From Paraspadella gotoi (taxonomy: Eukaryota > Animalia > Chaetognatha), in assembly GCA_051294375.1 (NCBI GenBank), contig CM119270.1:9931205-9995204 (forward strand): DNA of 64,000 bases, given 5' to 3'. Each line of letters starts with the position of its first letter. Within the stretch, counting starts at the first letter, position 1. The notes beneath the pieces are model-generated. The model ran no database searches, had not been told where the DNA came from, and was given only the letters and a program-made list of their open reading frames with translations. The position numbers were made by a program, and so were the translations under genes. Shown here in pieces: positions 573 to 63,559 of this stretch.

Positions 573-645
573 GCGGCCATTGGTGCCGGAGGCAAGTCAT
601 TCGCCTCCCAACCCAAAGGTCCGGGGATCTAGCCTGGTGATCGCC
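573..645 (+). ncRNA. tRNA-derived (Gly-like) Pol III head of family 1; not a functional tRNA
   Basis: Acceptor-like GCGGCCA/TGRTCGC, A-box-like TGGTGCCGGAGG, B-box GGTTCTAGYC in sister copies, TCGCCTCCCA reminiscent of tRNA-Gly; anticodon stem does not pair. Confidence 0.6.
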
Positions 646-891
646 TAGCAGTTAAGAGGGACTTCCGAACACATCATCAACAACAACACTTTCAGGCAAC
701 ATGCCTCAACCTGTTGATGCACTTTCCACCAACAACAATTCACAGAAGAGAAGCAAAAGTCTTCTCCCTATGGGAGTGGGGATGTATGGTGGACTAAAAT
801 CTACCAACCGTTTATCAGCGGCCATTGGTGCCCGAGGCAAGTCATTCGCCTCCTAACCCAAAGGTCCGGGGTTCTAGTCCGGTGGTCGTCT

Positions 892-958
892 AGAGGGATG
901 GGGCGCTTAATCCGCCTGTAACAGGGTGTTACCGCCTGATCCGAAGCTCAGGGATTGC
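892..958 (+). ncRNA. Type-P5 twister ribozyme fold, family 1 (5' P5 strand deleted in this copy)
   Basis: GAGG-GATGG-GGCGCT-T^AA-TCC-GCC-TGTAAC(loop)GTTAC-G-CCTGA-TCCGAAGC-TCAGG-GATTGC; predicted cleavage 908/909. Confidence 0.7.
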
Positions 959-1010
959 TTATATTGAACGGTTCTGTCACTAACATTTATTTTTTAAATT
1001 TTTATTCTAG

Positions 1011-2803: not shown

Positions 2804-3093
2804 TGTGGCGGTATATTCACACCGCCTCACGTCCACCATCCTACAGCCAAATCCATTGGCTCAGAGGGGGATCACACCATCCCAAGTGTAGTGTTCCATC
2901 CACAGTCCTAATGACTTCCCTCTGCGTTGGCAAAGCGAGACCGTCCTAGGGTAACCGCGCCAGTGACTGGAAGCGTCACTGAGGGTCAGAAGCCCCCAAA
3001 GCCAATAGCGAGATGCCCCATCCCAATGGGCATCACAGGCAACCCGGCTGTTGCCATAAGTGGTGAGCCCTACTATCGAACACGCAGCCTTCT
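2804..3093 (+). mobile_element. Twister-retrozyme-like family 2 copy (interrupted by a TIR element at 3094)
   Basis: Homologous to 18493-18725, 20058-20687(-) and 27042-27486; A-box-like TGGCTCAGAGGG 2857-2868, B-box-like GTTCCATCC 2893-2901. Confidence 0.88.
2926..3006 (+). ncRNA. Type-P5 twister ribozyme fold, family 2
   Basis: P5 GTTGGC/GCCAAT; AAA; P2' GCGA; GACCG; P1 TCCTAGGG; T^AA; P2 CCGC; GCC; P3 AGTGAC/GTCACT; G; P4 (A)GGG/CCC(C); L4 TCAGAAGC (TCGG in sister copies); predicted cleavage 2952/2953. Confidence 0.8.
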
Positions 3094-14165: not shown

Positions 14166-14354
14166 CTGGATGGAGGAAAGGGAGAGGAAAGGGAGGAAAG
14201 GGAAGAGGAAAATATAGGGAAAAGATTGGACAAAGGAAGAAAGGAGAGACGAAAAAGGGAGAAAGAAAGGGAGAAAAAAAGAAAAAGGAGAAATTTATAA
14301 AGGAGAAGAAAAAAGGAAAAACGAAGGAGAAAAAAACGAGTTGAAAATGAAGTC

Positions 14355-15038
14355 AACAAGTTTGAGCAAACAATGTCGGATCTGCCTACGATAATTAAGT
14401 GGTAATAAGCTAACTTGGTTAACTTGCATAATTTAATCAACTTGCATTATTTGGTCAACTAGCATAATTTGGTCAACTGACATAATTTTGTCAGCTGGCA
14501 TAATTTGGTCAACTGACATAATTTGGTCAACTGACAAAATTTGGTCAACTGACAAAATTTGGTCAACTTACAAAATTTGGTCAACTGACAAAATTTGGTC
14601 AACTGACAAAATTTGGTCAACTGACATAATTTGGTCAACTGACATAATTTGGTCAACTGACTTAATTTGTTTAACTGACTTAATTTATTTAACTGATTTA
14701 ATTTGTTTAACTGACATAATTTGGTTAACTGTCATAATTTGTTCAACTGACATAATTTGGTAAACTGACATAATTTGGTTATATCCATCTCAATCACAGT
14801 TTCCTACCTACACACAAAATTTCATACCAATCCATCCATCCAATCACGAGTAATTGGAGTTTTTTGCTAAGGGTGGACGGACGAAAGGACGGATGGATGG
14901 ACATTTTTTTGCATAATTTATCATAGTTCGAGGTTCTGTTATGATAATAATTATTTACCGACAATATTTTGGGGTGGGACCGACGGACCGACAAAGTGAA
15001 TTATAGAGTCGGAATCTGCTGATTAGCAAATCTGACTA
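14355..15038 (-). mobile_element. HINE/DINE-1-like (Helentron-associated) element with 18-bp internal array
   Basis: 5' hairpin of the AGTCGGATCTGC-TTATCA-GCAGATCCCGACT type, GTCC microsatellite, 3' subTIR GCAGATCCGAC plus GTTTG-CT-CAAAC stem-loop, T-rich insertion site; array (CATAATTTGGTCAACTGA)n at ~14415-14780. Confidence 0.8.
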
Positions 15039-18492: not shown

Positions 18493-18725
18493 TATGGTGG
18501 TATATTCACACCACCTCACGTCCTCGATCGTTCAGCCAATACCATTGACTCAGAGGGGGGACACACCATCCCAGGCGTTGCGTTCCATCCACAGTCCTAA
18601 CGACTTCCCTCTGCGTCCTAGGGTAACCGCACCAGTGACTGGATGCGTCACTGAGGGTCGGAAACCCCCAAAGCCAACAGTGAGATGCCCCATCCCAATG
18701 GGCATCACAGGCAACGCGGCTGTTG
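18493..18725 (+). mobile_element. Family 2 copy with 17-nt deletion through the ribozyme core
   Basis: ctgcgt[tggcaaagcgagaccgt]cctaggg; deletion between CGT microhomologies. Confidence 0.85.
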
Positions 18726-18872
18726 TGACCAGAACTTGTTCCGAGAAAACTGCTGGACCAAATTTATTGATCCTTATGTGAATACAAATAGAACTATCGA
18801 GGCGAATTTCAATATTTGACCTCTGAGCTTCCCAAGACCCCTCCAGCTCCCGTTTTCGGGTGCAATCCTTAC

Positions 18873-20057: not shown

Positions 20058-20687
20058 TTATGCAACAGGTTGCTGTGATGGCATTGGGATGGGCATTTAC
20101 TGTTGGTTGGGGGCTTAACGACTCATAGCATCCAGTACTGGCGCGGACCAGGCGGTCCGCTTTGCAAGCAAGATGGGATCATTAGGACTGTGGATGGATA
20201 TAAGTGGGATGTGTGCCACCCTGAGCCAATGTTTGGCTGAACGATCGTGGAGTGAGCGGTTGTGTATATACCCCACAGGATCGGCAAGACTCACTCAGTC
20301 CTCAAGCCTGAGAGGTGTTGGACAGACTGGTACCAAGTGGGAGAGAGAGGAGAGAGCTGCAGTTGTGGGGGCATATCGGTTTGTCGTAGCGTACCCCAGG
20401 GGCATAGGCGTTTGTCTACTACCCAATCAGCAGGCAATAGCTTTATACTAAATTCTTTCATATACTCACCCACTTTGCAACAGCCTTGCTGTATCCCATT
20501 GGGATGGGGCATCCTCAACTGTTGGCTTTCTTCCACCCTCATTACCCATCCATCACTCCCTTACCTACTCTCGCTTTGCAACCAAAAGGAAGTGCAAAGG
20601 ACTGTTGATTGGAACAATATGCCTGGGTTTTTCCCACCTACCAAATATTTGGCTGAACATTTGGATGGAGGCTGTGAATAACCGCCA
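20058..20687 (-). mobile_element. Family 2, degenerate head-to-tail tandem (~1.5 units)
   Basis: cattgggatggg(g)cat at ~20082 and ~20497; tttggctgaac at ~20232 and ~20648 (period ~415 nt). Confidence 0.75.
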
Positions 20688-21357
20688 AAAATATCAACGT
20701 ATCACGTATCACGCTAATAAAAACAAAGAAAATAAAAAATAAAAAGACGCTAATAAAAATAATGAATAATAATAATAAAAACAAAGATGCTAATAAACAT
20801 ACCACATAAAAATAAAAATGTGGTCCCACAATACCTACAATACATCTAAAATTTCATTCAAGATAAAAAATTTTTAAGATGAGGAAATGAAATTTATTTG
20901 AATAAGTAAAAAAAATATTTGGAAGTCAAAAATATCATAGTCGTTAACTGATTATTGTCAACTATATATTTTGTTAATAGAGATTATAATTTTTTGACCG
21001 TTATTATTGAAAATAGTTTAGCCTTATAGCGACGAGTTTTCATTTCATACAATCAATATCAATCTCATTAATTTTCAATAATATGCAAAAAAATAAGGTT
21101 TTCAACCTCATTTTGAACTAGATGAACAAAAGACTTCAGTCTTATTTCAATTGAAAAAAAAATAGAAAGTTAATTGATGCTTAATCACACTCTAATAAAA
21201 CAATTTTATTTTTATCACGCCACTTTTTTTTAATACAAAATCCCAAATTTATTTCCGAGATTTTCGTGGATTTTTATTTTTTACCTTCTAAAAACTTTTA
21301 TTATTATTTTATTATTCTCTCTATATTTCTCTCTCAATCAACTCTCTGTCGCTCTCT

Positions 21358-24649: not shown

Positions 24650-25054
24650 CTAAGTAGATAATGTGTTAAAATATTTGTGAGAAAAATAAACTATTAATTA
24701 AATAACAAGAACGGTAATTCCAATGTGATGCGCCGCAGTGACTTTATTTTCACATGTATTTCCCTTTGATGACATATGACATGACATGACTAAAAAACAG
24801 AAACAAAAAATCTTAAAGGAATAGTGATCTCACCAGACGAGAGGAGGAAATAAAGAAATAAAAAAAGAAAGACAAAAAATTGATGCGATGATAACCAATA
24901 ATCAATAATTGATGCGATGATAACCAAATGATTGATGCGATGATAATCATTCATTGACGCGATGAATCATTCATCGTAAATAAAACAATATGAGTGAGAG
25001 AGAGAGAGAGAAAGAGAGAGAGATATATAGAAGGAGAGAGAGAAAGAAAGAGAA

Positions 25055-25460
25055 AACAAGTTTGTGCAAACAATGTCGGATCTGCCTACGATAATTAAGT
25101 GGTAATAAGCTAACGTGGTCAACTTGCATAATTTAATCAACTTGCATAATTTGGTCAACTGACATAATTTGGTTAACTGACTAAATTTGGTCTACTGACA
25201 TAATTTGGTCAACTGACATAATTTGGTCAACTGACATAATTTGATCAATTAAGATAATTTGGTCAACCGGCATAATTTGGTCAACTGGCATAATTTTATC
25301 AACTGGCCTAATTTGGTCAACTTGCATAATTTGGTCAACAGGCATAATTTGGTGAACTTGCAGAACTTGATCAACTTGCAGAATTTGGTCAACTGGCATA
25401 ATTTGGTCAACTTTAAGAATTTGGTCAACTGGCATATTTTTGTCAATTGGCATAATTTGG

Positions 25461-25491
<31 letters not shown>

Positions 25492-26206
25492 GAGAGAGAT
25501 AGAGAGAGAGAAACTTTAAAAAATACAAAAAAATGTGTCTTTTGGTTTTCTAATTTGAACTCTTTTCCACTCCTACGATTCCATCAAAAAATTTATATCC
25601 AGCTTTATCACATACTTTCCTACCCACACACAAAATTCAATTTCGATTTATCTATCCAATTTTTAATAAACATAATAATTATGTGTAAATTTAAGTAAAA
25701 ATACTTCAAGTAAATATGACTTTTGTTTTTTCCATTTTAACTCATTTCCACTCGCACGATTCCATCGAAACTTTAAATCCAGCTTAATCACACACTTTCC
25801 TACCATCATACAAAATTGCAAGTCAGTTGCCATATCCACTCATGAGCAATAGTGAAATATATTTTTTTGTTTTTTCCATTTAAACCAATTTCCACTCGCA
25901 CGATTCCCTCGAAACTTCATATCCATCTCAATCACACAGTTTCCTACCCACACACAAAATTTCATACCAATCCATCCATCCAATCACGAGTAATTAGAGT
26001 TTTTTGCTAAGGTGGTATGGACGGACAGACAGACAGACAGACAGGCAGACAGACAGATGGACGGACATCATTTTTTTTGCATAATTTATCATAATTAAAT
26101 GTTCTGACATGATATAAGTGTGTGCCCGACAATATTGAGGGGGCGGACCGACGGACCGACAAAGTGAATTATAGAGTCGGGATCTGCTGATAAGCAGATC
26201 CGACTA
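25055..26206 (-). mobile_element. HINE/DINE-1-like element
   Basis: Same termini; 18-bp array ~25115-25465. Confidence 0.82.
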
Positions 26207-27041: not shown

Positions 27042-27486
27042 TAAGTGGTGAACCCTACCATCGAACACGCAACCTTCTCAGGATATGCTACGACAAACGC
27101 CTATGCCCCCACAACTCGCGCTCTCTCTCTCTCTCTCTCTCCCACTATGGTAACAGTCCTGTCAGACACCTCTCAGACTTGAGGAACCTGAGTGATGTCT
27201 TGGCCCGGGGATCCTGTGGTGGTATATTCACACCAACTAACGTCCACGATCGTTCAGCCAATACCATTGGCTCAGAGGGGGAACACACCATCTCAGGCGT
27301 TGTGTTTAATCCACACTCCACACAGTCCACAGTCCTAACGACTTTCCTCTGCGTTGGCAAATCGAGACCGTCCTAGGGTAACCGCGCCAGTGACTGGATT
27401 CGTCATTGAAGGTCGGAAGCCCCCAAAGCCAACAGTGAGAAGCCCCATCCCAATGGGCATCACAGGCAACCCGGCTGTTGCCATAA
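27042..27486 (+). mobile_element. Family 2, one complete unit (445 nt) with terminal TAA redundancy
   Basis: Starts TAAGTGGTGAACCCTACC and ends GTTGCCATAA; these two ends are contiguous in the 2804-3093 copy (TTGCCATAAGTGGTGAGCCC). Confidence 0.9.
27353..27433 (+). ncRNA. Type-P5 twister ribozyme fold, family 2 (T1 intact)
   Basis: GTTGGC-AAA-TCGA-GACCG-TCCTAGGG-T^AA-CCGC-GCC-AGTGAC..GTCATT-G-AAGG-TCGGAAGC-CCCC-AAA-GCCAAC; predicted cleavage 27379/27380. Confidence 0.8.
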
Positions 27487-32146: not shown

Positions 32147-33374
32147 TAGTCGGATCTGCTTATCAGCAGATTCCGACCCTATAAATCACTTTGTCGGTCC
32201 GTCGGTCCCACCCCAAAATATTGTCGGTAAATCATTATTATCATATCAGAACGTCGAATTATGATAAATTATGCAAAAAAATTCCATCCGTCCGTCCGTC
32301 CAATTACTCGTGATTGGATGGATGGATTGGTATGAAATTTTGTGTGTGGGTAGGAAACTGTGTGATTGAGATGGATATGAAGTTTCGATGGAATCGTCCG
32401 AGTGGAAATTGGTTTAAATGGAAAAAACAAAAAAATCTATTTCACTATTTGAACGCCAATTGCTCATGAGTGGATAGGGCAAGTGACTTGATATTTGTAT
32501 GATGGTAGGAAAGTGAGTAATTGAGCTGGATATAAAGTTTCGATGGAATCGTGCGAGTAGAAATGAGTTAAAATGGAAAAAAACAAAAATCATATTTACT
32601 TGAAACATTTTTACTTAAATTTACTCATAATTATTATGTTTATTAAAAATAGTGAAACAAGTAATTTGCAAATTTTCATAGACAAATTGAAAATGAATTT
32701 TGTTTGTGGGTAGGAAAGTATGTGATAAAGCTGGATATAAATTTCTTGATGGAATCGTAGGAGTGGAAAAGAGGTCAAACCAAAAGACACATTTATTTGA
32801 ATTTTTTAAAGTTTCTCTCTCTCTATCTCTCTCTGATTGATTGATTGATTGATTGACCAAATTATGCCAATTGAAAAAAATATGCCAGTTGATCAAATTC
32901 TGCAAGTTGACCAAATTATGCCAGTTGACCAAATTATGCCAGTTGACCAAATTCTGCAAGTTGACCAAATTATGCCAGTTGACCAAATTATGCCAGTTGA
33001 TAAAATTATGCCAGTTGATAAAATTATGCCAGTTGACCAAATTATGCCGGTTGACCAAATTATGTTAATTGACCAAATTATGTCAGTTGACCAAATTATG
33101 CCAGTTGACCAAATTTTGTCAGTTGAACAAATTATGTCAGTTAACCAAATTATATCAGTTAACCAAATTATGTCAGTTGACCAAATTATATCAGTTAACC
33201 AAATTATGTCAGTTGACCAAATTATGCAAGTTGATTAAATTATGCAATTTGACCAAGTTAATTATCATAATTATAATCATCATTATTATAATCATCATTA
33301 TTATCATAATTATTATCATCATCAATTATCATAATTATCATAGGCAGATCCGATATTGTTTGCTCAAACCTGTT
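32147..33374 (+). mobile_element. HINE/DINE-1-like element
   Basis: Same termini; 18-bp array ~32852-33257. Confidence 0.82.
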
Positions 33375-47258: not shown

Positions 47259-48321
47259 TAGTCGGACCTGCTTATCAGCAGATCCCGACTCTATAATTCA
47301 CTTTGTCGGTCCGTCGGTCCGCCCCCTCAATATTGTCGGGCACTAGCTTATATCATGTCAGAACATCGAATTATGATAAATTATGCAAAAAAAATTATGT
47401 CCGTCCGTCTGTCCGTCCGTCCGTCCGTCCGTCCGTCCGTCCGTCCGTCCGTCCGTCCGTCCGTCCGTCCGTCCGTCCGTCCGTCCGTCCCACCTTAGCA
47501 AAAAACACCAATTACTCGTGATTGGATGGATGGATTTGAATGAAATTTTGTGTGTGGGTAGGGAAGTGTGTGATTGAGCTGGATATAAAGTTTCCATGGA
47601 ATCGTCTCAGTGGAAATAAGCTTAAATGGAAAAAACAAAAAAATATAGTTCACTATTTGAACACCAATTGCTCATGAGTGTCAATCAATCCATCCATCCG
47701 TCCCACCTTAGCAAAAAGCCCCAATAACTCATGATTGGCTGGTTGGATCGGAATAAAATTTTATGTATGCGTAGGAACATGTGTGATGAAGCTGGATATA
47801 AAGTTTTGACGGAATCATGTGAGTGGATATGAGTTTAAATGGAAAAAACAAAAAAACAAAAAGGCGTTTACTAAAATCTTTTTACTTATTTTAACCAATA
47901 ATTGGATGAATAGATTGAGTTCAAATTTTGTGTGTGGGTAGGAAAATGTGTGATGAAGCTTGATATAAAGTTTCGGTATGAGTGGAAATGAGTTTAAATG
48001 AAAAAAATATGAGTCACATTTAGTTGACTCTTTTTACTTATTTCAACCCATAATAGATTGAGATGAAATTTTGTTAGCGGGAAGGAAAGTTTGTGAAGAA
48101 GTTAGATATAAAGTTTTGACGGAATTGTGCCAGTGGAAATGAGTTTAAATGGAAAAAATATAAGTCACATTTACTTTATTTTAAGGACATCTATGATGAT
48201 AAGCTGTATATAAAATAATAATTAATTATTAAATATTAAAATTAATTAATTAATTAATCGATTAATTAATTAATTAATTAATTTTCGTAGGCAGATCCGA
48301 CATTGTTTGCTCAAACTTGTT
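47259..48321 (+). mobile_element. HINE/DINE-1-like element with expanded (GTCC)n
   Basis: Same termini; (GTCC)n at ~47400-47490. Confidence 0.82.
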
Positions 48322-49441
48322 TTTTTTTTATTGTTTTTGAGCTGAAGAAAATGATGATGAATCGAGAAAAAATGTAGTTGAACAGAAGAAACCAGTTTTT
48401 GATTTTCGCTGTCTTTAAAACGAAATTGCGTCAGGTGACCGGGTTTTGTGTTTTGACTTCGTTAGGGGGTGTCAAGAGAATTTTGACCCAGGTCATGGTT
48501 ATGAAGCTTGGAGATGATGAGATGGTGAGATGGAAAATATAAGGTTTTAGTTTAGGTTATAAAACTACTAAACGATAAAAATAATCTACTTAGACTTCTG
48601 AACATAGAACTGATTCTTCCTAAATCAGACACAAATTTACTAAATTTGCTGAATATTTCGATTAACGAATCTTCTTTGTGATAAAACGGAGATAGATGCA
48701 AAACCTCACGATCTTCGTCGATCAAATGTCACTCCCTTCCTTTCAGGGGGCGTCATGGAATTTCGTCGTCGCCCACATTTTTTTGTCCTTCATTCGGAGG
48801 CGGAATAAGTTTGATATTGAAAAGACAATGAGATAAAAGTCGCGAAACACTTTTCTTCTTTTTTATAATCGGGAAGTTTTGAATTTCCGGGAAGTGAGAA
48901 ATAAGAAATCCGCTCCATCTGTTATCTTTATTAACAATTTATTAAAAACGGAATCAGTTTCATCGGCTAATCGGTTTATCAATTTTTATTCGGGGGAGGA
49001 GGTTGGGGGGGCAGGTGGAGGGTGTTTGGGGGGGTAGGCGGAGATTGGGGGGGTGGTAGGAAGGGGTTGGGGCGGCTGGGGGTGGAGGTTGTGGCGGTGG
49101 GAGGAGGTAGGAGGGAGGTAAAGAAGAATGTTGAGCGTCTCGTGTTTCTCATTAAAATTTTTCTTCGTTCTGGTTCCAAGGAAAAAAAACTTTGTAAGCA
49201 ACAGATTAAGTTTCCCCTTTTATTTTTGTTTTTTAAAAAAATGGTCTTATGACGACAACGACGACGACGACGACGACTTCGACAAGGATGGCATCGTAGA
49301 ATGAAGAGAGCAGTATCCATCAGAAGATAACTTAATTTATGTAAGTTTTTAGTTTTTTATGTTCGGATTTAGGATTAGGTGAGGGTTAGTGGTTACTAAC
49401 TGGTGAGGGTTGGGGATTGATTTATAGGTTCGGCTACAGAC

Positions 49442-49540
49442 TGAAGAGACAGTAATTATTGTTATGTGACAGAACCGTTCAATATAAGAAGTCACTGAGC
49501 TTCGGATCAGGCTGTAACACCGAGCTACAGGCGGGTTAAG
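49442..49540 (-). mobile_element. Family 1 fragment: 3' half of twister plus tail
   Basis: CTTAACCCGCCTGTAGCTCGGTGTTACAGCCTGATCCGAAGCTCAG...ATTACTGTCTCTTCA. Confidence 0.85.
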
Positions 49541-50549
49541 GTCCGGGATCACTAAATTCAAATTATAATTAGGCTAAAACCGACCTCGGATTTCGAAAGG
49601 ATAGCTCCTGACGATTCCGAAAATGTATTCACTTTACTATTTTTTCAAAGGCGTCATCGTTTTTTCGATTTTTTTGGTACTATATAAAATAAAAGAAACC
49701 TATTTGAAGAGTTGCAGCCCAAACGGTAAGGCGGTTTCTCATGAAATTTGACATGAATTACCTTTAGGTCACGAACTCCAATTCTATGAAAAGATACTTT
49801 CAAAATTTGCCTTCCTTCATAGAAAATTTGATTATTTTAGTCAATTTTTGGGATTAATTCCTTGATATTTTTGAAACAAAAAACATTTTTCCAAAAACGC
49901 GCTCATAGAATCTCCCCCACCTTTCTTTTCTTGCCCAAGATATTTTTTTCTTCAAGAAGAGTCCAGCGGTTTGAGCTGCAACTTCGTCAAGAAAATTAAA
50001 TTCTGTACTCATTATTTTTGCAAGATTCACCACAACATACACAAGCACGGGATGTGATGATGGAGTTCGTTCAACGCCGATGTCTTAAAAAAATGGCTTA
50101 CTGTTTTTAATTTTATTAATTCAGATTTGATTTTTTTTCAGAGATGATATAAACATTTACATAAAGTAAAAAGTCAAATGGAAATAAATTTGATAAGTTT
50201 TTTAACTCATAAAATTCATAAAAGCATTTAAGACTTATTAGTGATACAACTCCAAGTATGTACTTGTACCAAAAGAAGAATTAAAAATAAGAAGTAGAAA
50301 TTGAGCTTACTGTAAAGAATAAGTTTTAAGTTAAAAATTTGGTAGTAGAAATTTAGTTTATATTTAAAAAATCTTTTTCTCTTGAAAATTTAGTTTTACC
50401 GAAGAAAAAATTTTGTTTAAAATTTTATGAACATTTTAGGTAGATTTTTAAAAGTTTTTGATTATTTTCTAATAGAAAACCTCTTATAAGATGTGAGAAA
50501 ATGATTAAGATACAGTAAATAAATATTTCTACAATTTTAGGTTGAGTGA

Positions 50550-51066
50550 TCCCTCTTAACTGCTAGGCAACTACCGGGCTAGAACCCCGGACCTTTGAGT
50601 TGGGAGGCGAATGACTTGCCTTCGGCACCAATAGCCGCTGATGAATGGTTTAGTCCACCATACATCCCCCCCTCCCGTAGGGAGAAGTCTGTTGCATCTC
50701 TTCAGTGAATTGTTGTTGTTGGTAAAAAGTTCATCACCAAGTTGAGGCATGTCGCCTGATGTGTTGTTGGCGGAAAGTGCATCGACAGGTTGAGGCATGT
50801 CGCCTGAAAGCGTCGTTGTTGCTCTTGTATTCGGAAGTCGAGCTCACCAATGAAGAGACAGTAATTATTGTTATGTGTTAATGACAGAACTGTTCAATAT
50901 AAACGGTCCCTGAGCTTCGGAACAGGCTGTAACACCGAGTTACAGGCGGGTTAAGCGCCCCGTTCCTCTTAACTGCTAGGCGACCACCAGGCTAGAACCC
51001 CGGACCTTTGGGTTAGGAGGCGAATGACTTGCCTGATGAATAGTTGGTGGATTTTAGTCCACCATA
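50550..51066 (-). mobile_element. Twister-retrozyme-like family 1, ~1.3-unit copy (head - twister - tail - spacer - head)
   Basis: Unit period 404 nt here (TATGGTGGAC at 51066 and again at 50662); block order is a circular permutation of 543-986. Confidence 0.88.
50903..50976 (-). ncRNA. Type-P5 twister ribozyme fold, family 1
   Basis: GCAGTT-AA-GAGG-AACGG-GGCGCT-T^AA-CCC-GCC-TGTAAC-TCGGT-GTTACA-G-CCTGT-TCCGAAGC-TCAGG-GACCGT; presumed catalytic G is A in this copy; predicted cleavage 50953/50952. Confidence 0.72.
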
Positions 51067-52661
51067 AGACTTTGTTTAAATATTAATGTTAAAATACAGG
51101 ATAAAGGAACAGAAATGGAGAAGAGAGCAAAAATTCTATATCTTTGTCTCACTGCCGTTTTCTACCAAAATCTGCATTGGCATGAGGGGCTATAGAAGAT
51201 CATCCGTGTAAATATTAAAATTCAAGTTCGATTTATAAAAAAAAATTAATTAATTAATTATTTAAATAAATAAATAAATAAATAAAGAAAAATTAATTAA
51301 TTAATTAATTAAATAATTAAATAAACATTTTCAAAAAAATGAATGAAATGAATGAATGAATGAATGAATGAATGAATGAATATAGGAATGAGTCAATTTT
51401 GGAATGAATGAATTAAGGGATTTAGACGATATTGTTATGAATATTGAAGACGAGGACGACGACAACGACGACGATGACGATATTGACACCGACGATCGTG
51501 CCGCCTTTTTCTCTCATCTCTCTCGGGGAACATCTGGAAAAAAAGGAAAGCAAACGGAAAACGTAAACAAAGAATTTTTTTGGTTTTGGATGCGATTTCC
51601 AGATAATCCCGTCACCGGAAGTGACGTTTCATGCAAATTTAAACCAAACACGATGAGAAGCAAAACTAGACGGGGGATGAAATAAAAAAAACATCAACAA
51701 CATCAACGACGAAGATAACGACAAAAAAAAAACAAGAACAACAGTGTTGTTCAACGACGACGACGATAACCCAGCCAGATGAAATCGTAAACCTCGAAGA
51801 CCACATGTATGCGTTTTGAGGAGATTCAAATCGCGAAACAAAAATAAGATTCAAGAGTTTTTTTTTGAAGTTTTGGGTTTGTTTTTTTTTTTTTTTTTTT
51901 TTTTAAACTTTTTTCTTATTTTAGTTTGTATTTTTGGAGGGGGAGGCCAGACCAGAGGAGGAGGGCTTTTTTTTTCTCTCTCTCTTCCTCTGCGGGCTTC
52001 GTAATTCATATCGACCACCGCCCTGTTTTCTCTTAACTTTTACGTTTTTTTTCTTTGTTTCTTCTTTTCTCTCCTTCGCCTCAGATATTGAGAATTTTTT
52101 TAATTCTGCACATTTTTTTTTCTTTTCTGTTTAATTCAAATCGTTTGACGCGGAGAAAAAAAGAGAAGCAGGGAATTGGAAAGGAAGATAGAAAAGAAAA
52201 AACCAAGGGAATCTAATAGTGGTAGAAACAATGAAATAGGAAGTTAAAGTCTCCGTGTAGGAAAAAGCACAATAGTAGAGTAGAAAGAGCTAAAAACTAG
52301 AAAATTAGCAGTTTAAAAATATTTGTAATCTTGGTAGTCTTTCTAACAAATTGCCCCAGTTCCTCAGCCCCGAACGCGAAGAAACCGGGAACGGATCCCA
52401 CATTTTTGGCCCAGCTGTTGTCTTGAAACGCACGAAAGGTTTAAGAAAAAAACTTCACAAACTTTTAACGATCTTCGGACTTCTAAAAAAAATATAATCC
52501 AAATCATATTGAAAATCCCAAACTTCTTTTTTCAATTTAATTTCGGGGAAGAATGAGCAGAATTTCGAATCTAAAAAGATAATCAAGAAAGGCAAGCGCG
52601 ATCAATCGTTTCGACAACGAGAGCGGTTCAATTTTCGGATGGGAAAGCAATTGTCAGTTTT

Positions 52662-53790
52662 TAGTCGGATCTGCTTATAAGCAGATCCCGACACTATAAT
52701 TCACTTTGTCGATAAGGTCGGTCCGCCCCCTCAATCTTGTCGGGCATTAACTTATTTCATGTCAGAACATAAGTTATGCAAAAAAAAAACGATGTCCGCC
52801 CGCCCGTCCGTCNNNNNNNNNNCAATTGACCTGAAATTTTGTATGTGGGTAGGAACATATTTGATTAAGCTGGAAATCAAGTTTCGATGGATCTTTTGAG
52901 TGGAAATGAGTTTAAATGGAAAAAAACAAAAAACCTGTTTCACAAATTGATTATGCTTCTTTTTCTTTTTATATTAAATGTAAATGCAACTCAATAGGGT
53001 GAGTCAAAAATTTAGAGTGAATACATGCTCAAACGAATATTTAGACATTTTTAAGAATACTTTCAATGAACAAAAATTTATAATATGGCCCTATACTCTA
53101 GTAATTAATTTTTTAATATTTATTTATAAACAGGAAAGGCCAAAAATTTTTTTAGAATTTTTAAATTTTAAGACCAGATTCAGATAGCTCATACAAAGTA
53201 TAATTCTTTTTTAAATATTTTTACGATAAGTGTGTCAAAAATAAGAAAAACGTAAAAAATTATCATCTTTCGATGAATTTATCAGTTTTTTTATATTTTC
53301 ACTTAGAAAACGTAAGAATTTTTAAAAGCTGTAATTATATTTCTTGTTTAACTTTTTATGCTATATCAGAATGCAAAAAATTTTAAGATTTTAAAAAAAT
53401 ATTTTTTGCTCTATATAGTAATATAATATTTTTTAATTAGGCTAGTACCCTCAGAAGAAAGCATTTTTGACAAAAAATATTTTAATACCATAATCTATGG
53501 TCATGATAGATTATTTTAACGCTGTATACATTAGCATTTAAATTTCATTGGCTATTGCTAATGCAAGATGTATAAATTAATCAAAATAATTAATCAGTTA
53601 ATTAATTTATTAGTCAATTAATTAATCAATTTTTAATTAATCAGTCAATTAATCAATCAAAACAAACATTTCGGATCAAGTTAATTATTTAATAAACTAA
53701 TTAATTAATTAACTTGAATTAATTCATTATTAATTATTTAATTACCGATATTGATCGTGGGCAGATCCGACATTGTTTGCTCAAACTTGT
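52662..53790 (+). mobile_element. HINE/DINE-1-like element with a nested AT-rich insertion (~52995-53560)
   Basis: Same termini; duplicated at 58135-59462. Confidence 0.75.
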
Positions 53791-56286
53791 AACGTTAAAG
53801 AACGCGTAATGATATTAATAATTATTGGCAGATTTAAACATTTACCTTACAAAAAACCTTTAAAATGAATAATAGAAATATTTTTTAAAAATATTTTACC
53901 GTCTTAAACCTGAAATTTTTTTCAAGTGTGTGCAGTGCACTGTGCAGTCAATATTTCTAAAAAAGTAAAGGAAACATAGATAATTTAAAATAGAACCGAA
54001 TGAGACGGAGTCGAAGTTGTATTTTTTTTTTTGAGGCTTATTTTTTTGACGTCATCTGATGCTTCTTTCTGTTTTTCTGAGTCTCTTTTCTTTCGATCCG
54101 TCGGTTTTATTTATTTTCCGCCTTCCAGTTTTTCAATATTCTTTTGTTTGATTTTAATTGTCGAATCCAATCTCTTTAGTTTTTTTATATCTTACCACGC
54201 ACTTAGGCGTCTTCGGCATGCATTTTTAATCGTAGAAAGTATTTAACAGTCGAATGAATAGCTTTTATATCTAAAAAAATAATACAAGTTCAACGTAATT
54301 AGTGATCGATATGTAAACAAATCTGGCCGTGTAAACAGATATTTCAAAATAGAATATTCTGCTTCATATTTGATTTCTCGGTCAAAATGTGCCGACTTTA
54401 ACTTCTTCTGAGATGGTTTTGAAAATAGGGAACGTCCACCTGGATCCCCTTACGATTTTCTCAAAACACGAAACAGGAAGAAGAAAATTCACCTCTAAAA
54501 ATTGATCACATGAGAGCGAGAGGGAGAGTCATGAATCGTCTTGGGAAATTACCCATGCTCTCTTTCACAAGAAACACGGAAATATAAGGAATGGAGAAAG
54601 AAATAGAAAGAGAGAAAGAGAGCGAGAGAGAGAGAGAGATTTTCATTCCAATATTCTCTTGTCGTCCCATTTCTTATAATTTTACTTTCTTCGACGTATT
54701 AAAAGAAAAAAAATAGATACGATCCCAAAATACAACAATTTTCAAATCAATCGGTTAGTTTACAAAAACAAAAAACAAAAACATAATCAAAATAAAAATA
54801 AAGAAAACATAAGGTAGGTTAATTATCTTCTTCCCCAAAATATTCGGTCGTCCCACAAAAATTCGAAATATTTTTTTTATCGTTAAATTTCTCGGTCTGA
54901 GTTTTCCCCGAATATTTTTACGGGTTTTTCACGGAAAGATGATGAAAGAAGCGACGAGGGCCGAAGACAGGGGAGAAGGTTTGTTTATTGACATTCGAGC
55001 CAATCATTCACTATTTTACGCTCATTTCTCTTCCCCCTTTTTTTTCAAGTAATATTTTTTTTATTATAAAGGAATGTTGACTAATTTACGTTTTATAGAC
55101 AGCCATGAAAATCAATTTTTTAAAAATGAGATGAAGAGAGAGGAGTCAAGGAGAGAAGAGGGTTTCATTAATTAATTAATTAATTTTTGGCCAACTTCAT
55201 TAAAAAAAAATTTAAGTAAAATTCTTTACAGTGAATAGTTGATTAATCAAATCCCAGATCTTCATCGACGAAAAATTGAGAAAGGACGAAAAATTGTTTT
55301 TCTATCTTTGATGTAGAAGAAAAAAAATCGTTTTGGTGAATTTGAGTTTCTCTCTCTCTTTCTCTNNNNNNNNNNCTCTCTCTCTTCTCTTCAAAAACAT
55401 TTTTCTCCCAACAAGGCCGCAGGTACAACGCGTCTCATGTAGATCAATAGGTCAAAGAAAAGTAGGTTTACTGTATTATGGGCAAAAGCTTTATTAGGTT
55501 AGAGCCAAACTTCGTCAATGGGGTGGGTCAGAAGTTTGATTTGGGAACCTTTCCAAATGAAACTTCATACATTTCTGAGAAAACTTTCAATGGAGCAAAA
55601 TTTTCTAAACTGGCAAGAAGCATTAGTAATTAATTTTTTAATATTTATTTATAGATAGGAAATGTCAAAAAATTTTTTTTGAATTTTTTTATTTTTAAAA
55701 GCAGATTCAAATAGCTTATGAAGTTATTTACACAAAGTATAAATCTTTTTTCAATATTTTGATGATAAGTGGGTTAAAATTGAGAAAAACCTTAAAAAAT
55801 CATCATCATCATCATCATCCGATGATTTTAGCAGTTTTTCCTAATTTTTAGTAATAAAACATCAAAATTTTAAAAAGTTGTAATTATATTTTTTGCTTAA
55901 CTTTTTAAGCTCTATCAGAATCAATGAAAAAAACTTAAAATATCCAAAAACAATTTTTAACATTATATAGCAATATAATAATATTAATTAGCGAATTACT
56001 CATGGTTCGGAACATTTTTTGCAAAAAAAAATTTTAACACAATAATTAATACCAATAATAGATTAGATTAATGCTGTTCCCATTAAAATTTGAATTTGGT
56101 CGGCTCCCGCTAATTTTGGTTTGGGTTCCTTCATGCCAACGATCTTCTTACCCAGTGGGCGGATTTCCAGGAGGCTCTTTTTGTTCTTTCCCCGGGACCC
56201 AAACCCATCTTCCCTGAGGCCCAAACATGTCTGGATGCATCTTTAATTTGTCCTAAACAGCAAAGTGACAAAGTAAATATAAAAAA

Positions 56287-56322
<36 letters not shown>

Positions 56323-56326
<4 letters not shown>

Positions 56327-56540
56327 GAAGAGACAGTAATTATTGTTATGTTTAATGACAGAACTGTTCAATATAACGGTCCCTGAGCTTCGGAAACAGG
56401 CCTGTAACACCGGATTACAGGCGGGTTAAGCGCCCCGTTCCTCTTAACTGCTAGGGCGACCACCAGGCTAGAACCCCGGCCTTGGGTTAGGAGGCGAATG
56501 ACTTGCCTGATGAATAGTTGGTGGATTTTTGTCCACCATA
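56323..56540 (-). mobile_element. Family 1 copy inside the second unit of the 5.4-kb duplication
   Basis: Near-identical to 50848-51066. Confidence 0.85.
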
Positions 56541-58134
56541 AGACTTTTGTTTAAATATAATGTTAAAATACAGGATAAAGGAACAGAAATGGAGAAGAGA
56601 GATCTATTTGTCTCACTGCCGTTTTCTACCAAAATCTGCATTGGCATGAGGGCTATAGAAGATCATCCGTTGTAAATATTAAAATTCAAGTTCGATTTAA
56701 AAAAAAAATTAATTAATTAATTATTTAAATAAATAAATAAATAAATAAAGAAAAAAATTAATTAATTAATTAATTAAATTAATTAATATAAACATTTCAA
56801 AAAATGAATGAATGAATGAATGAATGAATGAATGAATGAATGAATGAATGAATGAATGAATGAATATAGGAATGAGTCAATTTTGGAATGAATGAATTAA
56901 GGGATTTAGACGATATTGTTATGAATATTGAAGACGAGGACGACGACAACGACGACGATGACGATATTGACACCGACGATCGTGCCGCCTTTTTCTCTCA
57001 TCTCTCTCGGGGAACATCTGGAAAAAAAGGAAAGCAAACGGAAAACGTAAACAAAGAATTTTTTTGGTTTTGGATGCGATTTCCAGATAATCCCGTCACC
57101 GGAAGTGACGTTTCATGCAAATTTAAACCAAACACGATGAGAAGCAAAACTAGACGGGGGATGAAATAAAAAAAACATACAACAACATCAACGACGAAGA
57201 TAACGACAAAAAAAAAAACAAGAACAACAGTGTTGTTCAACGACGACGACGATAACCCAGCCAGATGAAATCGTAAACCTCGAAGACCACATGTATGCGT
57301 TTTGAGGAGATTCAAATCGCGAAACAAAATAAAGATTCAAGAGTTTTTTGATTTTGGTTGTTTTGTTTTTTTTTTTTTTTTTTTAAACTTTTTTCTTATT
57401 TTAGTTTGTATTTTTGGAGGGGGAGGCCAGACCAGAGGAGGAGGGCTTTTTTTTTCTCTCTCTCTTCTCTGCGGGCTTCGTAATTCATATCGACACCGCC
57501 CTGTTTTCTCTTAACTTTTACGTTTTTTTTCTTTGTTTCTTCTTTTCTCTCCTTCGCCTCAGATATTGAGAATTTTTTAATTCTGCACATTTTTTTTTCT
57601 TTTCTGTTTAATTCAAATCGTTTGACGCGGAGAAAAAAAGAGAAGCAGGGAATTGGAAAGGAAGATAGAAAAGAAAAAACAAGGGAATCTAATAGTGTTA
57701 GAAACAATGAAATAGGAAGTTAAAGTCTCCGTGTAGGAAAAAGCACAATAGTAGAGTAGAAAGAGCTAAAAACTAGAAAATTAGCAGTTTAAAAATATTT
57801 GTAATCTTGGTAGTCTTTCTAACAAATTGCCCCAGTTCCTCAGCCCGAACGCGAAGAAACCGGGAACGGATCCCACATTTTTGGCCCAGCTGTTGTCTTG
57901 AAACGCACGAAGGTTTAAGAAAAAAAACTTCACAACTTTTAACGATCTTCGGACTTCTAAAAAAAATATAATCCAAATCATATTGAAAATCCCAAACTTC
58001 TTTTTTCATTTTAATTTCGGGGAAGAATGAGCAGAATTTCGAATCTAAAAAGATAATCAGAAAGGCAAGCGCGATCAATCGTTTCGACAACGAGAGCGGT
58101 TCAATTTTCGGATGGGAAAGCAATTGTCAGTTTT

Positions 58135-59462
58135 TAGTCGGATCTGCTTATAAGCAGATCCCGACACTATAATTCACTTTGTCGATAAGGTCGGTCGCCC
58201 CCTCAATCTTGTCGGCATTAACTTATTTCATGTCAGAACATAAGTATGCAAAAAAAAAACGATGTCCGCCCGCCCGTCCGTCCGTCCGTCCGTCCGTCCG
58301 TCCGTCCGACCTTAACAAAAACACCGATTACTCGTGATTGGATGGATGGATTGGAATTTGTATGTGGTTAGGGAAGTGTGAGATTGAGCTGGATATGAAG
58401 TTTCGATGGAATCATCCGAGTGGAAATGAGTTTAAATGGAAAAAACAAAAAAATATATCTCATTATTATTTGAACACCAATTACTCATGAAAGGATGGGG
58501 CAATTGACCTGAAATTTTGTATGTGGGTAGGAACATATTTGATTAAGCTGGAAATCAAGTTTCGATGGATCTTTTGAGTGGAAATGAGTTTTAAATGGAA
58601 AAAAACAAAAAACCTGTTTCACAAATTGATTATGCTCTTTTCTTTTTATATTAAATGTAAATGCAACTCATAGGGTGAGTCAAAAATTTAGAGTGAATAC
58701 ATGCTCAAACGAATATTTAGACATTTTTAAGAAACTTTCAATGAACAAAAATTTATAATATGGCCCTATACTCTAGTAATTAATTTTTTTAATATTTATT
58801 TATAAACAGGAAAGGCCAAAAATTTTTTTAGAATTTTAAATTTTAAGACCAGATTCAGATAGCTCATACAAAGTATAATTCTTTTTTAAATATTTTTACG
58901 ATAAGTGTGTCAAAAATAAGAAAACGTAAAAAATTATCATCTTCGATGAATTTATCAGTTTTTTTATATTTTCACTTAGAAAACGTAAGAATTTTTAAAA
59001 GCTGTAATTATATTTCTTGTTTAACTTTTTATGCTATATCAGAATGCAAAAAATTTTAAGATTTTTAAAAAAATATTTTTTGCTCTATATAGTAATATAA
59101 TATTTTTTAATTAGGCTAGTAGCCTCAGAAGAAAGCATTTTTGACAAAAAATTTTTAATACCATAATCTATGGTCATGATAGATTATTTTAACGCTGTAT
59201 ACATTAGCATTTAAATTTCATTGGCTATTGCTAATGCAAGATGTATAAATTAATCAAAATAATTAATCAGTTAATTAATTTATTAGTCAATTAATTAATC
59301 AATTTTTAATTAATCAGTCAATTAATCAATCAAAAAAACATTTTCGGATCAAGTTAATTATTTAATAAACTAATAATTAATTAACTTGAATTAATTCATT
59401 ATTAATTATTTAATTACCGATATTGATCGTGGGCAGATCCGACATTGTTTGCTCAAACTTGT
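58135..59462 (+). mobile_element. HINE/DINE-1-like element (duplicate of 52662-53790)
   Basis: Same termini and nested insertion. Confidence 0.75.
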
Positions 59463-61012
59463 ACGTTAAAGAACGCGTAATGATATTAATAATTATTGGC
59501 AGATTTAAACATTTACCTTACAAAAAACTTTAAAATGAATAATAGAAATATTTTTTAAAAATATTTTACCGTCTTAAACCTGAAATTTTTTTCAAGTGTG
59601 TGCAGTGCACTGTGCAGTCAATATTTCTAAAAAAAGTAAAGGAAACATAGATAATTTAAAATAGAACCGAATGAGACGGAGTCGAAGTTGTATTTTTTTT
59701 TTTTGAGGCTTATTTTTTTGACGTCATCTGATGCTTCTTTCTGTTTTTCTGAGTCTCTTTTCTTTCGATCCGTCGGTTTTATTTATTTTCCGCCTTCCAG
59801 TTTTTCAATATTCTTTTGTTTGATTTTAATTGTCGAATCCAATCTCTTTAGATTTTTTTATATCTTACCACGCACTTAGGCGTCTTCGGCATGCATTTTT
59901 AATCGTAGAAAGTATTTAACAGTCGAATGAATAGCTTTTATATCTAAAAAATAATACAAGTTCAACGTAATTAGTGATCGATATGTAAACAAATCTGGCC
60001 GTGTAAACAGATATTTCAAAAATAGAATATTCTGCTTCATATTTGATTTCTCGGTCAAAATGTGCCGACTTAACTTCTCTGAGATGGTTTTGAAAAATAG
60101 GGAACGTCCACCTGGATCCCCTTACGATTTTCTCAAAACACGAAACAGGAAAAGAGAAAATCACCTCTAAAAATTGATCACATGAGAGCGAGAGGGAGAG
60201 TCATGAATCGTCTTGGGAAATTACCCATGCTCTCTTTTCACAAGAAACACGGAAATATAAGGAATGGAGAAAGAAATAGAGAAGAGAGAAAGAGAGCGAG
60301 AGAGAGAGAGAGATTTTCATTCCAATATTCTCTTGTCGTCCCTTTTCTTATAATTTTACTTTCTTCGACGTATTAAAGAAAAAAATAGATACGATCCCAA
60401 AATACAACAATTTTCAAATCAATCGGTTAGTTTACAAAAACAAAAAACAAAAAACATAATCAAAATAAAAATAAAGAAAACATAAGGTAGGTTAATTATC
60501 TTCTTCCCCAAAATATTCGTTCGTCCACAAAAATTCGAAATATTTTTTTATCGTTAAATTTCTCGGTCTGAGTTTTCCCCGAATATTTTTACGGGTTTTT
60601 CACGGAAGATGATGAAAGAAGCGACGAGGCCGAAGACAGGGGAGAAGGTTTGTTTATTGACATTCGAGCCAATCATATCACTATTTTACGCTCATTCTCT
60701 TCCCCCTTTTTTTTCAAGTAATATTTTTTTATTATAAAGGAATGTTGACTAATTTACGTTTTATAGACAGCCATGAAAATCAATTTTTTAAAAATGAGAT
60801 GAAGAGAGAGGAGTCAAGGAGAGAGAGGGTTTCATTAATTAATTAATTAATTTTTGGCCAACTTCATTAAAAAAAAATTTAAGTAAAATTCTTTACAGTG
60901 AATAGTTGATTAATCAAATCCCAGATCTTCATCGACGAAAAATTGAGAAAGGACGAAAAATTGTTTTTCTATCTTTGATGTAGAAGAAAAAAATCGTTTT
61001 GGTGAATTTGAG

Positions 61013-61045
<33 letters not shown>

Positions 61046-63559
61046 TCCTTCTCTTCAAAAACATTTTTTCCCAACAAGGCCGCAGGTACAACGCGTCTCA
61101 TGTAGATCAATAGGTCAAAGAGAAAAGTAGGTTTACTGTATTATGGGCAAAAGCTTTATTAGGTTAGAGCCAAACTTGTCAATGGGGTGGGTCAGAAGTT
61201 TGATTTGGGAACCTTTCCAAATGAAACTTCATACATTTCTGAGAAAAACTTTCAATGGAGCAAAATTTCTAAACTGGCAAGAAGCATTAGTAATTACATT
61301 TTTTAATATTTATTTATAGATAGGAAATGTCAAAAAATTTTTTTTTGAATTTTTTATTTTTAAAAGCAGATTCAAATAGCTTATGAAGTTATTTACACAA
61401 AGTATAATCTCTTTTTCAATATTTTGATGATAAGTGGGTTTAAAATTGAGAAAAACCTTAAAAAATCATTCATCATCATCATCATCTGATGATTTTAGCA
61501 GTTTTTACTAATTTTAGTAATAAAACATCAAAATTTTAAACAGTTGTAATTATATTTTTTGCTTAACTTTTTAAGCTCTATCAGAATCAATTAAAAAAAC
61601 TTAAAACATCCACCAAAAAATTTTTGACATTATATAGCAATATAATAATATTAATTAGCGAATTACTCATGTTTCGGAACATCTTTGCCAAAAAATATTT
61701 TAACACAATAATTAATACCAATAGGATTAGTTTATGCTGTTCCCATTAAAATTTGAATTTGGTCGGCTACCGCTAATTAGGTTTGTTAATTTGTCGGACG
61801 ACGGCCTCCGACCCGACAGCGAAAACCCATTATGCGATAGAAACCAGTGTTGTGAGCGTTTCCAATGGAAACCTAACCCCGCGGGGAAAATTCGGGTGAG
61901 AAAGGGAAAGTAAAAGGAAAGAGACAAGGAAAGAAGAAAATTAGGGAGGGGAGAAATGGCAAATAATATATAAGGGCCAAAAGAAATAAAAAGAAAATGA
62001 TATTTTAAAAATCCTGTGTACGAACACTTGCCGTGTGCTCGTATAGCCGCCTCTGCTTTCGCCGCCGTCGCGCCGCTACGGAGGACCGTCGTCCTCCACG
62101 TCCCTTGCTGACGCCTCCGGAAAGTGGGCGTGGCCGCTCTGGCGCCGTTTGCGCATGCGCCGAAAACGTCGGCTCGCCGGTGATGAGAGAGTAATCGGCG
62201 AGGTTGTCGTCACCCGAGTGTGGTCGAATGGGATTGGCCACAAGTCCGTCCACAAGTCTATGACGGAGCTAGTCTGAAACCACGAGCGTGTCCACGAGTC
62301 CCGAGTGTGGTCTCACAGTGGGCTCTATGGCCACAATGACTCTGTCTTGAAAACGGTATCGAAAGGTGACGTGACGTGACGTGAAGTGTCCTAAAGCCTC
62401 GTAAAAGGCAGTTGGTGACGGGTGGAAAGTCCTTTAGAATCTAATTGGCCTAGATATATCTGGTAAGAAAAGAAAATAGGAGTGTTAATCTCCTAAGAAG
62501 AGGAAAAAAGACATCTATCGGCAGAAACGGTAAATAACAAAAGGCAAACAAATAAATGGGGAAAAGGGGGACATATCTCTACCCCCACCTCCAGCGCTCT
62601 ATCAGAAGGCGGTGGAAAAACTCCAACGAAAACCACTCTGATCTGGAAGGGCAGTGTTAAAGCATTGGCCAAGAGGAAGTGAAAGAATCAAGAAAGGGAA
62701 GAGAAGAATCAAGATAGATGTAAGAAGANNNNNNNNNNNNNNNNNNNNNNNNNGAATAAGATCGAGGGAAAAAGAAAAAATAAATAAAATGTCAAAATAA
62801 ATGAAAAAAAATAAAAGGGGAAAAGGAAGAAAATGTTTTTATTATTGTATTTATGCCTGTCAGAAACCGCTTTACTTTTAATTTTATGTGATTGAATCTT
62901 TCTAACGTTTGAATGTCACAATATCAAAGTAAATAAAGATCATCGAAATAAAATTTTCTTTTGAGCGTACGCGTCGAATTTCTAAACAGAACGATCAGTT
63001 GAGCAGACAATAAAAAAAAATAATTTCCAAATGGTAAAATCGAACGTTTCAAGATGGATACTACAAGCTAATAGATAAAAACGAATGGATAAAATTTTAA
63101 AAACGAGACTATAATACAACAGCATCCATGGAACAATTTCCGGTCTTTGGCTGCAATGTCGCAACAGAATCAGCTTCAATGTTCTTTCTGACGAGCGCCA
63201 GGCCGCGTCTGGCCCGCCGTAAGTCGGCGGGGGCGCGGACTTGGGCGCCTCGTCTCTTTTAAAGATCGTGGGTTGGTTCTCGTCTTTGCTAAAAATGGTT
63301 CTCCCCCGCCGGAATGAGCTCCGGCATCGAGGGGGAAGGAAGGAGCTGAGCAAGGGTTTCGGTGACCAAGAAAGGATCTGTTGTCGGTTGGCGCCACAGT
63401 TGTCGACAAAGTTGTTGGGCTTATTGTTTGAGACTCGCAAAATTTCACTGTTTTTTGTTTTACGGAAGTCACAAAACCGATAATCTTTCACCATCTTTTG
63501 CATCGACTGTACTAAACGAAAGTCGTCAAGTAAGTCAACGATATATGTACTATTTGGTA

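Follow-up and report, generated by a model that had tools for sequence, protein, structure and literature searches.

Analysis of a 64-kb stretch of DNA (the window, meaning the whole stretch that was analysed) suggests that the sequence at 49438-51070 on the minus strand is a short non-coding LTR retrotransposon, a TRIM of the Helenus type, which carries a predicted P5-permuted twister ribozyme in its LTR and would spread in the manner of a plant retrozyme. We give this reading, which is drawn from sequence, a probability of roughly 0.58. Apart from a 1,009-bp insertion the element (element C) measures ~620 bp, made up of an LTR of 216 nt, an internal region of 186 nt and an LTR of 214 nt, and no ORF of at least 120 aa overlaps it. 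Its features are the following.

51067-51070, minus strand: left target-site duplication (TSD) GTCT, identical to 49438-49441, in a register that presumes loss of the first TG (2 nt) of the LTR
50851-51066, minus strand: 5' LTR, 216 nt, ending in CTCTTCA and sharing 93% identity with both halves of the 3' LTR
51045-51064, minus strand: 7-bp hairpin at the LTR start (folding z -2.96)
50979-51034, minus strand: remnant of a tRNA-like head, identified by alignment, with box B and T-arm retained and 18 nt including box A deleted
50903-50976, minus strand: P5-permuted twister motif, predicted cut 50953/50952, found with a descriptor and a phage-only covariance model
50954-50959, minus strand: self-complementary linker of 6 nt where stem P1 would be expected (self-duplex of 6 bp, -8.3 kcal/mol)
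50837-50850, minus strand: tRNA-Trp-like primer-binding site (PBS), 12 of 14 nt equal to the PBS of Gypsy-32_NVi and Helenus-2_SyJa (by-eye comparison with the supplement of PMC10886601)
50665-50850, minus strand: internal region, 186 nt, containing a duplication of 48 nt and sharing 88% identity with what is left of the internal region of element A, a second insertion
50665-50676, minus strand: polypurine tract (PPT) seen in the sequence, 12/12 purines, abutting the TG of the 3' LTR
50554-50664, minus strand: left part of the 3' LTR, comprising a tRNA-like head of 73 nt (50638-50566) and the initial twister strands
49545-50553, minus strand: 1,009-bp insertion with 9-bp terminal inverted repeats, splitting the 3' LTR within the twister
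49442-49544, minus strand: right part of the 3' LTR, with the rest of the twister, predicted cut 49538/49537, ending in CTCTTCA
49438-49441, minus strand: right target-site duplication GTCT

The insertion separates 50664-50554 from 49544-49442, which together make up one LTR. The insertion is AT-rich, has no clear TSD and occurs as a single copy in the window; it is probably a non-autonomous DNA transposon. The ends of the LTR are found repeatedly: the start TGTATGG follows directly on a purine tract at 50664 in element C and at 783 in element A, and CTCTTCA is present at 50851 and at 49442. Both 3' LTRs have the TG and both LTRs of element C are closed by CA. The 5' LTRs start off the norm, with TA in element A and with the TG missing in element C. 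More generally, the outer LTR starts at 541, 18493 and 51066 read TA or lack the TG, and the inner starts next to the PPT retain it. The 4-bp TSD was seen in one case, element C; the right end of element A is eroded. The hairpin at the LTR start has its equivalent in the copy at 541-575 (folding z -3.66). A first reading of the sequence as a ~405-bp tandem satellite was rejected after the PBS, PPT and TSD had been recognised, and so was a reading of 49540-49442 as strong-stop cDNA beginning at the cut site, since this segment is the far half of the split LTR.

These boundaries also bear on the initial annotation, in which the tRNA-like part was regarded as a SINE-like promoter. That assignment is not upheld, and a tRNA-headed SINE or a tandem non-LTR retrozyme similar to Sm-alpha is very improbable. 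The ~410-nt head-to-tail spacing, with a Pol III head beside a ribozyme, resembles Sm-alpha of schistosomes (PMC6765202). However, a PBS abuts the CA end and a PPT abuts the TG start of the repeat, a 4-bp TSD flanks the whole, the head lies ~30 nt inside the TG...CA repeat instead of at the 5' terminus, and there is no poly-A or LINE-type tail. The metazoan non-LTR retrozymes are described as lacking LTRs, PBS and PPT (PMC7229834, PMC7761336).

What the initial annotation stated on the layout of the head is borne out. On the minus strand it ends with GGTGGTCGCC at 50979, followed by TA and by the P5 strand GCAGTT at 50976-50971, and the coupling of a Pol III-type head to a predicted self-cleaving twister holds as anatomy. 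The 18 nt lost from the head of the 5' LTR of element C include box A; heads of 73 nt remain at 50638-50566 and at 818-890. Box B reads GGTTC and box A reads TGGTG, against TRGCY in most Helenus elements. ARAGORN called no tRNA in the window at default settings and Rfam gave no tRNA in family 1 (the family of elements A and C) at E ≤ 1 or E ≤ 10. With relaxed thresholds, ARAGORN drew a 73-nt cloverleaf with a 7-bp acceptor stem and a T-arm in two of the three undeleted heads. The label 'Gly' given to the head earlier is insecure: one head was called Gly(CCC) and another Arg(CCT), at relaxed thresholds that yield 10 and 33 calls window-wide.

Element A and a duplicate of the 5' LTR of element C are the further family-1 sequences of the window.

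541-985, plus strand: element A, the second family-1 insertion (alignment, repeat ends, descriptor)
541-662, plus strand: 5' LTR of element A, with its 3' half and the PBS deleted
772-782, plus strand: PPT of element A, 10/11 purines
783-985, plus strand: 3' LTR of element A, end eroded
893-958, plus strand: twister of element A, catalytic G kept, 5' strand of P5 deleted
56323-56540, minus strand: duplicate of the 5' LTR of element C, 98% identical, inside a duplicated block of ~5.5 kb

The six family-1 fragments, at 543-662 and 785-985 on the plus strand and at 49442-49540, 50552-50662, 50850-51066 and 56323-56555 on the minus strand, represent four LTR copies of two independent insertions and one assembly duplicate. 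No intact copy is present in the window. The LTRs of a pair are 92-93% identical, so the insertions are old, and the copies in the window are probably dead. All evidence at the family level comes from the 64-kb window. Searches for family-1 relatives beyond it gave no match in viral contigs, one match of 34 nt (E 0.6) in phages and nine matches in metagenomes, which lie in high-GC contexts, lack the stems and Rfam support and were taken as chance.

The window itself is AT-rich, dense in microsatellites and interrupted by five N gaps. It contains P450 exons whose best solved relatives are the animal enzymes CYP17, CYP1 and CYP2, so that the host is likely an animal. A homologue search with the P450 exon gave no match, and the Atlas placed it no more narrowly than as a eukaryotic P450. 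Element A lies in sense orientation ~25 nt ahead of the splice acceptor of a cytochrome P450 gene (998-1962, plus strand); if this site is intronic, an active twister there would cut the P450 pre-mRNA. The segments 50848-56123 and 56323-61785 form the ~5.5-kb duplication, with 96-97% identity and many small gaps; it probably represents either a second haplotype or an error of the assembly. A minisatellite of 18 bp is found at several places in both orientations, together with a repeat of ~170 nt that is associated with it (14283-14834, 24983-25516 and 32795-33332; 32300-32472 and 47508-47680).

After GCAGTT, the twister motif of family 1 reads on the minus strand, in this order, GAGG, (G/A)A, CGG, GGCGCT, T^AA, CCC, GC, a P3 of 7 bp, P4 and the loop TCCGAAGC. 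The motifs of the consensus core given in the initial annotation are found at the place named there, but that core is a composite, which is not present as a whole in any single copy. Likewise, the 3' strand of P5, given as GAYTGC, reads GACCGT in the copy at 50903-50976, where five of the six pairs form, two of them G.U. The description of P2 as ~2 bp plus a C.A pair was confirmed, with an alternative pairing of 3 bp with a bulged A (2-3 pairs in all). T1 and T2 are complementary, so that both pseudoknots can be drawn, and the core, T1, T2, P3 and P4 are in register with the Rfam P5 consensus and with the schistosome examples in PMC8501958. The conserved core (N^AA, GC, loop UCNNAAGC and GA before T1') is complete in the 3' LTR of element A and is changed by G to A in the 5' LTR of element C. 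The copy at 50903-50976 is likely inactive as judged from its sequence, because an A replaces the catalytic G (50964) and the closing pair of P4 is broken. Three non-duplicate LTR copies retain the loop, and in all three it reads TCCGAAGC. In every copy that keeps the positions concerned, P4 is closed by A-U, P2 has the C.A pair or the bulge, and no P1 stem is present.

Compared with the type-P5 twister (RF02684), the family-1 motif shares the order P2'-GA-T1'-UAA-P2-GC-P4-L4, the core residues at undamaged positions and the complementarity of T1 and T2. It differs in having a P3 and a real P5 stem and in falling below Rfam detection, and two of its traits are unusual: the palindromic P1 linker of 6 nt and the A-U pair closing P4. 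On account of the Rfam score and of the pair closing P4, we class the motif as a predicted twister variant.

The resemblance to a twister exceeds chance. A generic P5-twister descriptor, written after the sequence had been seen, recovers 18 of 18 Rfam-confirmed phage loci. In the window it matches family-1 copies only, namely 893 in strict form and 893 and 50968 with the catalytic G relaxed. With P3 required, 500 shuffles of the whole window gave 0 strict matches and 1 relaxed match (without P3, 2 strict and 10 relaxed), and no match was obtained when the LTR was shuffled 100,000 times. A covariance model built from eight phage twisters, which contained no window sequence, was used to search 128 kb at E ≤ 10. 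Its six matches were four family-1 copies and one twister of a second family (family 2, below), all in the proposed register, and one unrelated site; the copy at 50903-50976 ranked first of the six with the best E-value, 0.12, and the family-2 twister ranked second. As a set these model matches are suggestive; singly they are not significant. A fortuitous likeness to a twister inside a real repeat is accordingly the least probable of the explanations considered, hardly to be credited. No curated model passes (Rfam gave no family-1 twister at E ≤ 1 or E ≤ 10, and the thresholds of RF02684 and RF03160 were not reached) and the E-values of single copies are 0.1-6, as a chance likeness would have it; the shuffles speak against it, and the same architecture was found again in the second family. 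Minimum free energy folds of single twister or head copies were no better than those of shuffled sequences (z -0.1 to -1.2).

Twisters known from nature give a yardstick for the deviations of family 1. In the literature, the G-C pair closing P4 is essentially invariant and P2 consists of four pairs; a P2 with more or fewer pairs than this may upset the active site (PMC5408937). Among 67 credible unique P5 motifs from phages and prokaryotes, in proportions shaped by the search patterns and by a filter that demanded a P1 stem, the P2 strand is 3 nt long in 37, the variable T1 pair has the G-C form in 8 and P4 has 4-7 pairs. A phage scan for a 3-nt P2 gave 44 loci, and 17 of the 20 submitted to Rfam were above threshold. 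The view that a 3-nt P2 is disabling is weakened by such Rfam-passing phage twisters, and with 37 of 67 the short P2 remarked on in the initial annotation is not unusual. In IMG/VR, phage contigs hold clusters of type-P5 twisters, as many as five in 1.5 kb, and in many of these P2 is 3 bp long, against 4 bp in the consensus. The A-U pair closing P4 fared differently: none of the six loci (four unique) found in a phage scan for it is a credible twister. The P1 linker is 12-25 nt long in 32 of 33 unique P5 motifs, against 6 nt in family 1. The six loci from a first phage scan with GAAGG were dismissed as chance.

These deviations are at the centre of the main rival explanation, according to which the element is an ordinary Helenus-type TRIM that uses a normal terminal repeat for strand transfer, and its twister a captured relic which was already inactive as family 1 spread. 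We regard such a vestigial ribozyme as unlikely, but as deserving more weight than the other alternatives. The A-U at a near-invariant position, the C.A pair or bulge in P2 and the missing P1 stem are what a relic would show, and Rfam misses the family-1 motif. It has been argued that a ribozyme behind a small-RNA head would cut that head off, at a cost (PMC5786205), and most of the Helenus LTRs inspected in the supplement of PMC10886601 show no ribozyme by eye. The loop TCCGAAGC, unaltered in all non-duplicate LTR copies that retain it, stands against a relic, as does the lack of a T4 run in any of the eight LTR pieces of the window. Further counter-evidence concerns the second family, which is represented by four copies.

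2804-3056, plus strand: family-2 LTR with twister at 2926-3006, predicted cut 2952/2953, palindromic P1 linker of 8 nt; a Trp-like PBS comes directly after the LTR
18493-18731, plus strand: family-2 LTR
20060-20690, minus strand: degraded family-2 copy
27215-27483, plus strand: family-2 LTR with twister at 27353-27433, preceded by an internal region (from 27042)

The LTR of family 2 starts with TG and a hairpin and ends with CA, after which a Trp-like primer site follows. Its twister occupies the same slot and is cleaner than that of family 1, with a 6-bp P5, a 4-nt P2, a G-C pair closing P4 and a linker of 8 nt. No same-strand BLAST match better than E 3 was found between the two families. 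Six pairs are nevertheless changed on both sides and still paired, of which P5 accounts for three, P3 for two and T1 for one, in a comparison for which the P5 strands of family 1 were drawn from different copies. Both families thus keep all twister pairings, including both pseudoknots, by compensatory changes, which argues against a relic. Each family-2 copy has lesions of its own and none passes the descriptor. With Rfam the only match to family 2 was twister-P1 at E 8.1 (27215-27483), far below threshold, and a model built from family 2 only scored family 1 at E 1.6, ranked below one junk match. The tRNA-like part of family 2 has a degenerate box A and T-arm and was not called by ARAGORN, and no clean purine tract precedes its 3' LTR.

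The linkers that replace P1 are fully self-complementary in both families, with 6 pairs (-8.3 kcal/mol) in family 1 and 8 pairs, counted by inspection, in family 2 (-11.0 kcal/mol). In the window 2.9% of 6-mers and 1.1% of 8-mers are self-complementary, and the joint background is ~0.5% for inner linker pairs that are dispensable to a monomer hairpin. As a monomer, P1 of family 1 would consist of a single G.U pair capped by a palindromic tetraloop. In amphibian retrozymes, hammerheads whose stem is 1 bp long and carries a palindromic tetraloop cleave efficiently as dimers (PMC7229834). The palindromes of both families therefore point to cleavage as a dimer, and the dimer activity at which the initial annotation hinted fits the palindromic linker. 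Activity as a monomer is possible as well, because P1 is dispensable for twister cleavage (PMC5408937), and a dimer may thus be unneeded.

Under the retrozyme-like reading, Pol III would start at the A and B boxes of the head in the 5' LTR, or read-through would supply the RNA, and the Pol III transcript would continue through the 3' LTR, since a T4 run is absent from all 8 LTR pieces. The predicted twister would cut at U^A in both LTRs and so release a unit of ~400 nt (406 nt for element C without the insertion). This unit would begin with a 5'-OH, end in a cyclic phosphate and lack a terminal repeat. P1, with 1 bp in the monomer and 6 bp in the dimer, would probably be completed by pairing between the two LTR copies, as in double hammerheads. 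A host RtcB-type ligase would close the circle, and, with tRNA-Trp as its primer, a Gypsy reverse transcriptase would travel round it, rebuild both LTRs and integrate the product with a 4-bp duplication. By analogy with plant retrozymes, for which cuts in both LTRs, circularisation and copying by Gypsy enzymes are described (PMC4918200, PMC7761336, PMC5680766), such a cycle with a Trp primer may be ascribed to family 1 at the same odds as the reading as a whole; less confidence attaches to the need for a dimer, and likewise to the circle.

An active twister might instead merely trim linear RNA, as a terminator or a 5' processor, the palindrome being a dimerisation or packaging signal for a helper particle and no circle being formed. 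Palindromic dimer signals do occur in retroelement RNAs. The LTR lacks a T4 terminator, P1 is dispensable for cleavage, and twisters process the 5' end of the linear RNA of Perere-3 (PMC8501958), all of which would suit such trimming. However, with both LTRs cut at the same position, strand transfer would have no terminal repeat to use, a problem that plant retrozymes solve with a circle (PMC7761336). Linear trimming is consequently considered rather improbable, less so than a SINE or a chance likeness.

The retrozyme-like reading joins parts that are already known from Helenus elements, LTR retrozymes, Sm-alpha and RTE twisters; their combination was not found in the literature covered. With the Helenus TRIMs (TRIMp3; PMC10886601) the element shares a non-coding sequence of <1.3 kb, two LTRs with a tRNA-like sequence, a PBS, a PPT and a 4-bp TSD. 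Animal Helenus elements are described with 4-bp TSDs and a Gypsy-type PBS, and Helenus-2_SyJa and Helenus-2_SyUm have the Trp-type PBS also found in Gypsy-32_NVi (PMC10886601). Family 1 differs from them by the twister in the LTR, by box A TGGTG and by an LTR ending in TTCA. The LTR consensuses of these two wasp elements in the supplement of PMC10886601 appear by eye to contain, in the slot that the twister takes in family 1, a complete type III hammerhead directly after the tRNA-like part, with the core, three stems (7, 4 and 6 pairs) and loops that are complementary to each other over 12 nt. In the text of PMC10886601 no ribozyme is named in Helenus, the word appearing in one reference title only. 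A search of the supplement with short motifs, from which motifs split across lines could escape, found neither an LTR with a twister loop nor a match to family 1. Both Ajax LTRs in this supplement contain an 11-nt word that family 1 has at its predicted cut site, and show no twister stems by eye.

The plant LTR retrozymes (PMC4918200, PMC7761336) likewise have a ribozyme in both LTRs, are non-autonomous and carry a PBS, a PPT and a 4-bp TSD, and in family 1 the predicted ribozyme occupies corresponding positions in the two LTRs and these signals are present as well. A Gypsy helper and a unit RNA running from cut to cut would be further points of likeness, which for family 1 are predictions. 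The differences are a likely animal host, a twister instead of a type III hammerhead (no hammerhead core was found in the 64-kb window), a Trp instead of a Met primer, a tRNA-like head in the LTR and a unit of ~400 nt against 600-1000 nt. Sm-alpha and the metazoan non-LTR retrozymes (PMC6765202, PMC7229834) resemble family 1 in a Pol III head beside a ribozyme and in a unit of 170-400 nt; unlike family 1 they have hammerheads and no LTR, PBS or PPT. The weak palindromic stem is shared with the amphibian retrozymes, whose stem needs the dimer (PMC7229834). The twister variants of Perere-3, an RTE element (PMC8501958), are also twisters in an animal retroelement, with a similar start of P3; they are of the P1 type, and the element, which is coding and non-LTR, carries them at its 5' end. 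In the literature covered, which lies outside most subscription papers and Repbase notes, we found no twister in an LTR and no natural dimeric twister.

We propose, tentatively and with less than even odds, that animals have LTR retrozymes, in the form of Pol III TRIMs that have taken different ribozymes into the same slot of the LTR, behind a tRNA-like promoter (a twister in the two families of the window, a type III hammerhead in gall-wasp Helenus), and that natural 'double twisters' exist, in which a palindromic P1 forms only between LTR copies and a full-length transcript brings about its own excision as a circle of ~400 nt. If the reading is true, an LTR element in which a tRNA-like head precedes a twister joins the Helenus and retrozyme classes. 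Eukaryotic twisters would then gain a role outside RTE elements, with these sequences as candidates for dimer-cleaving twisters. The reading also predicts overlooked ribozymes in the LTRs of TRIMs that have already been catalogued.
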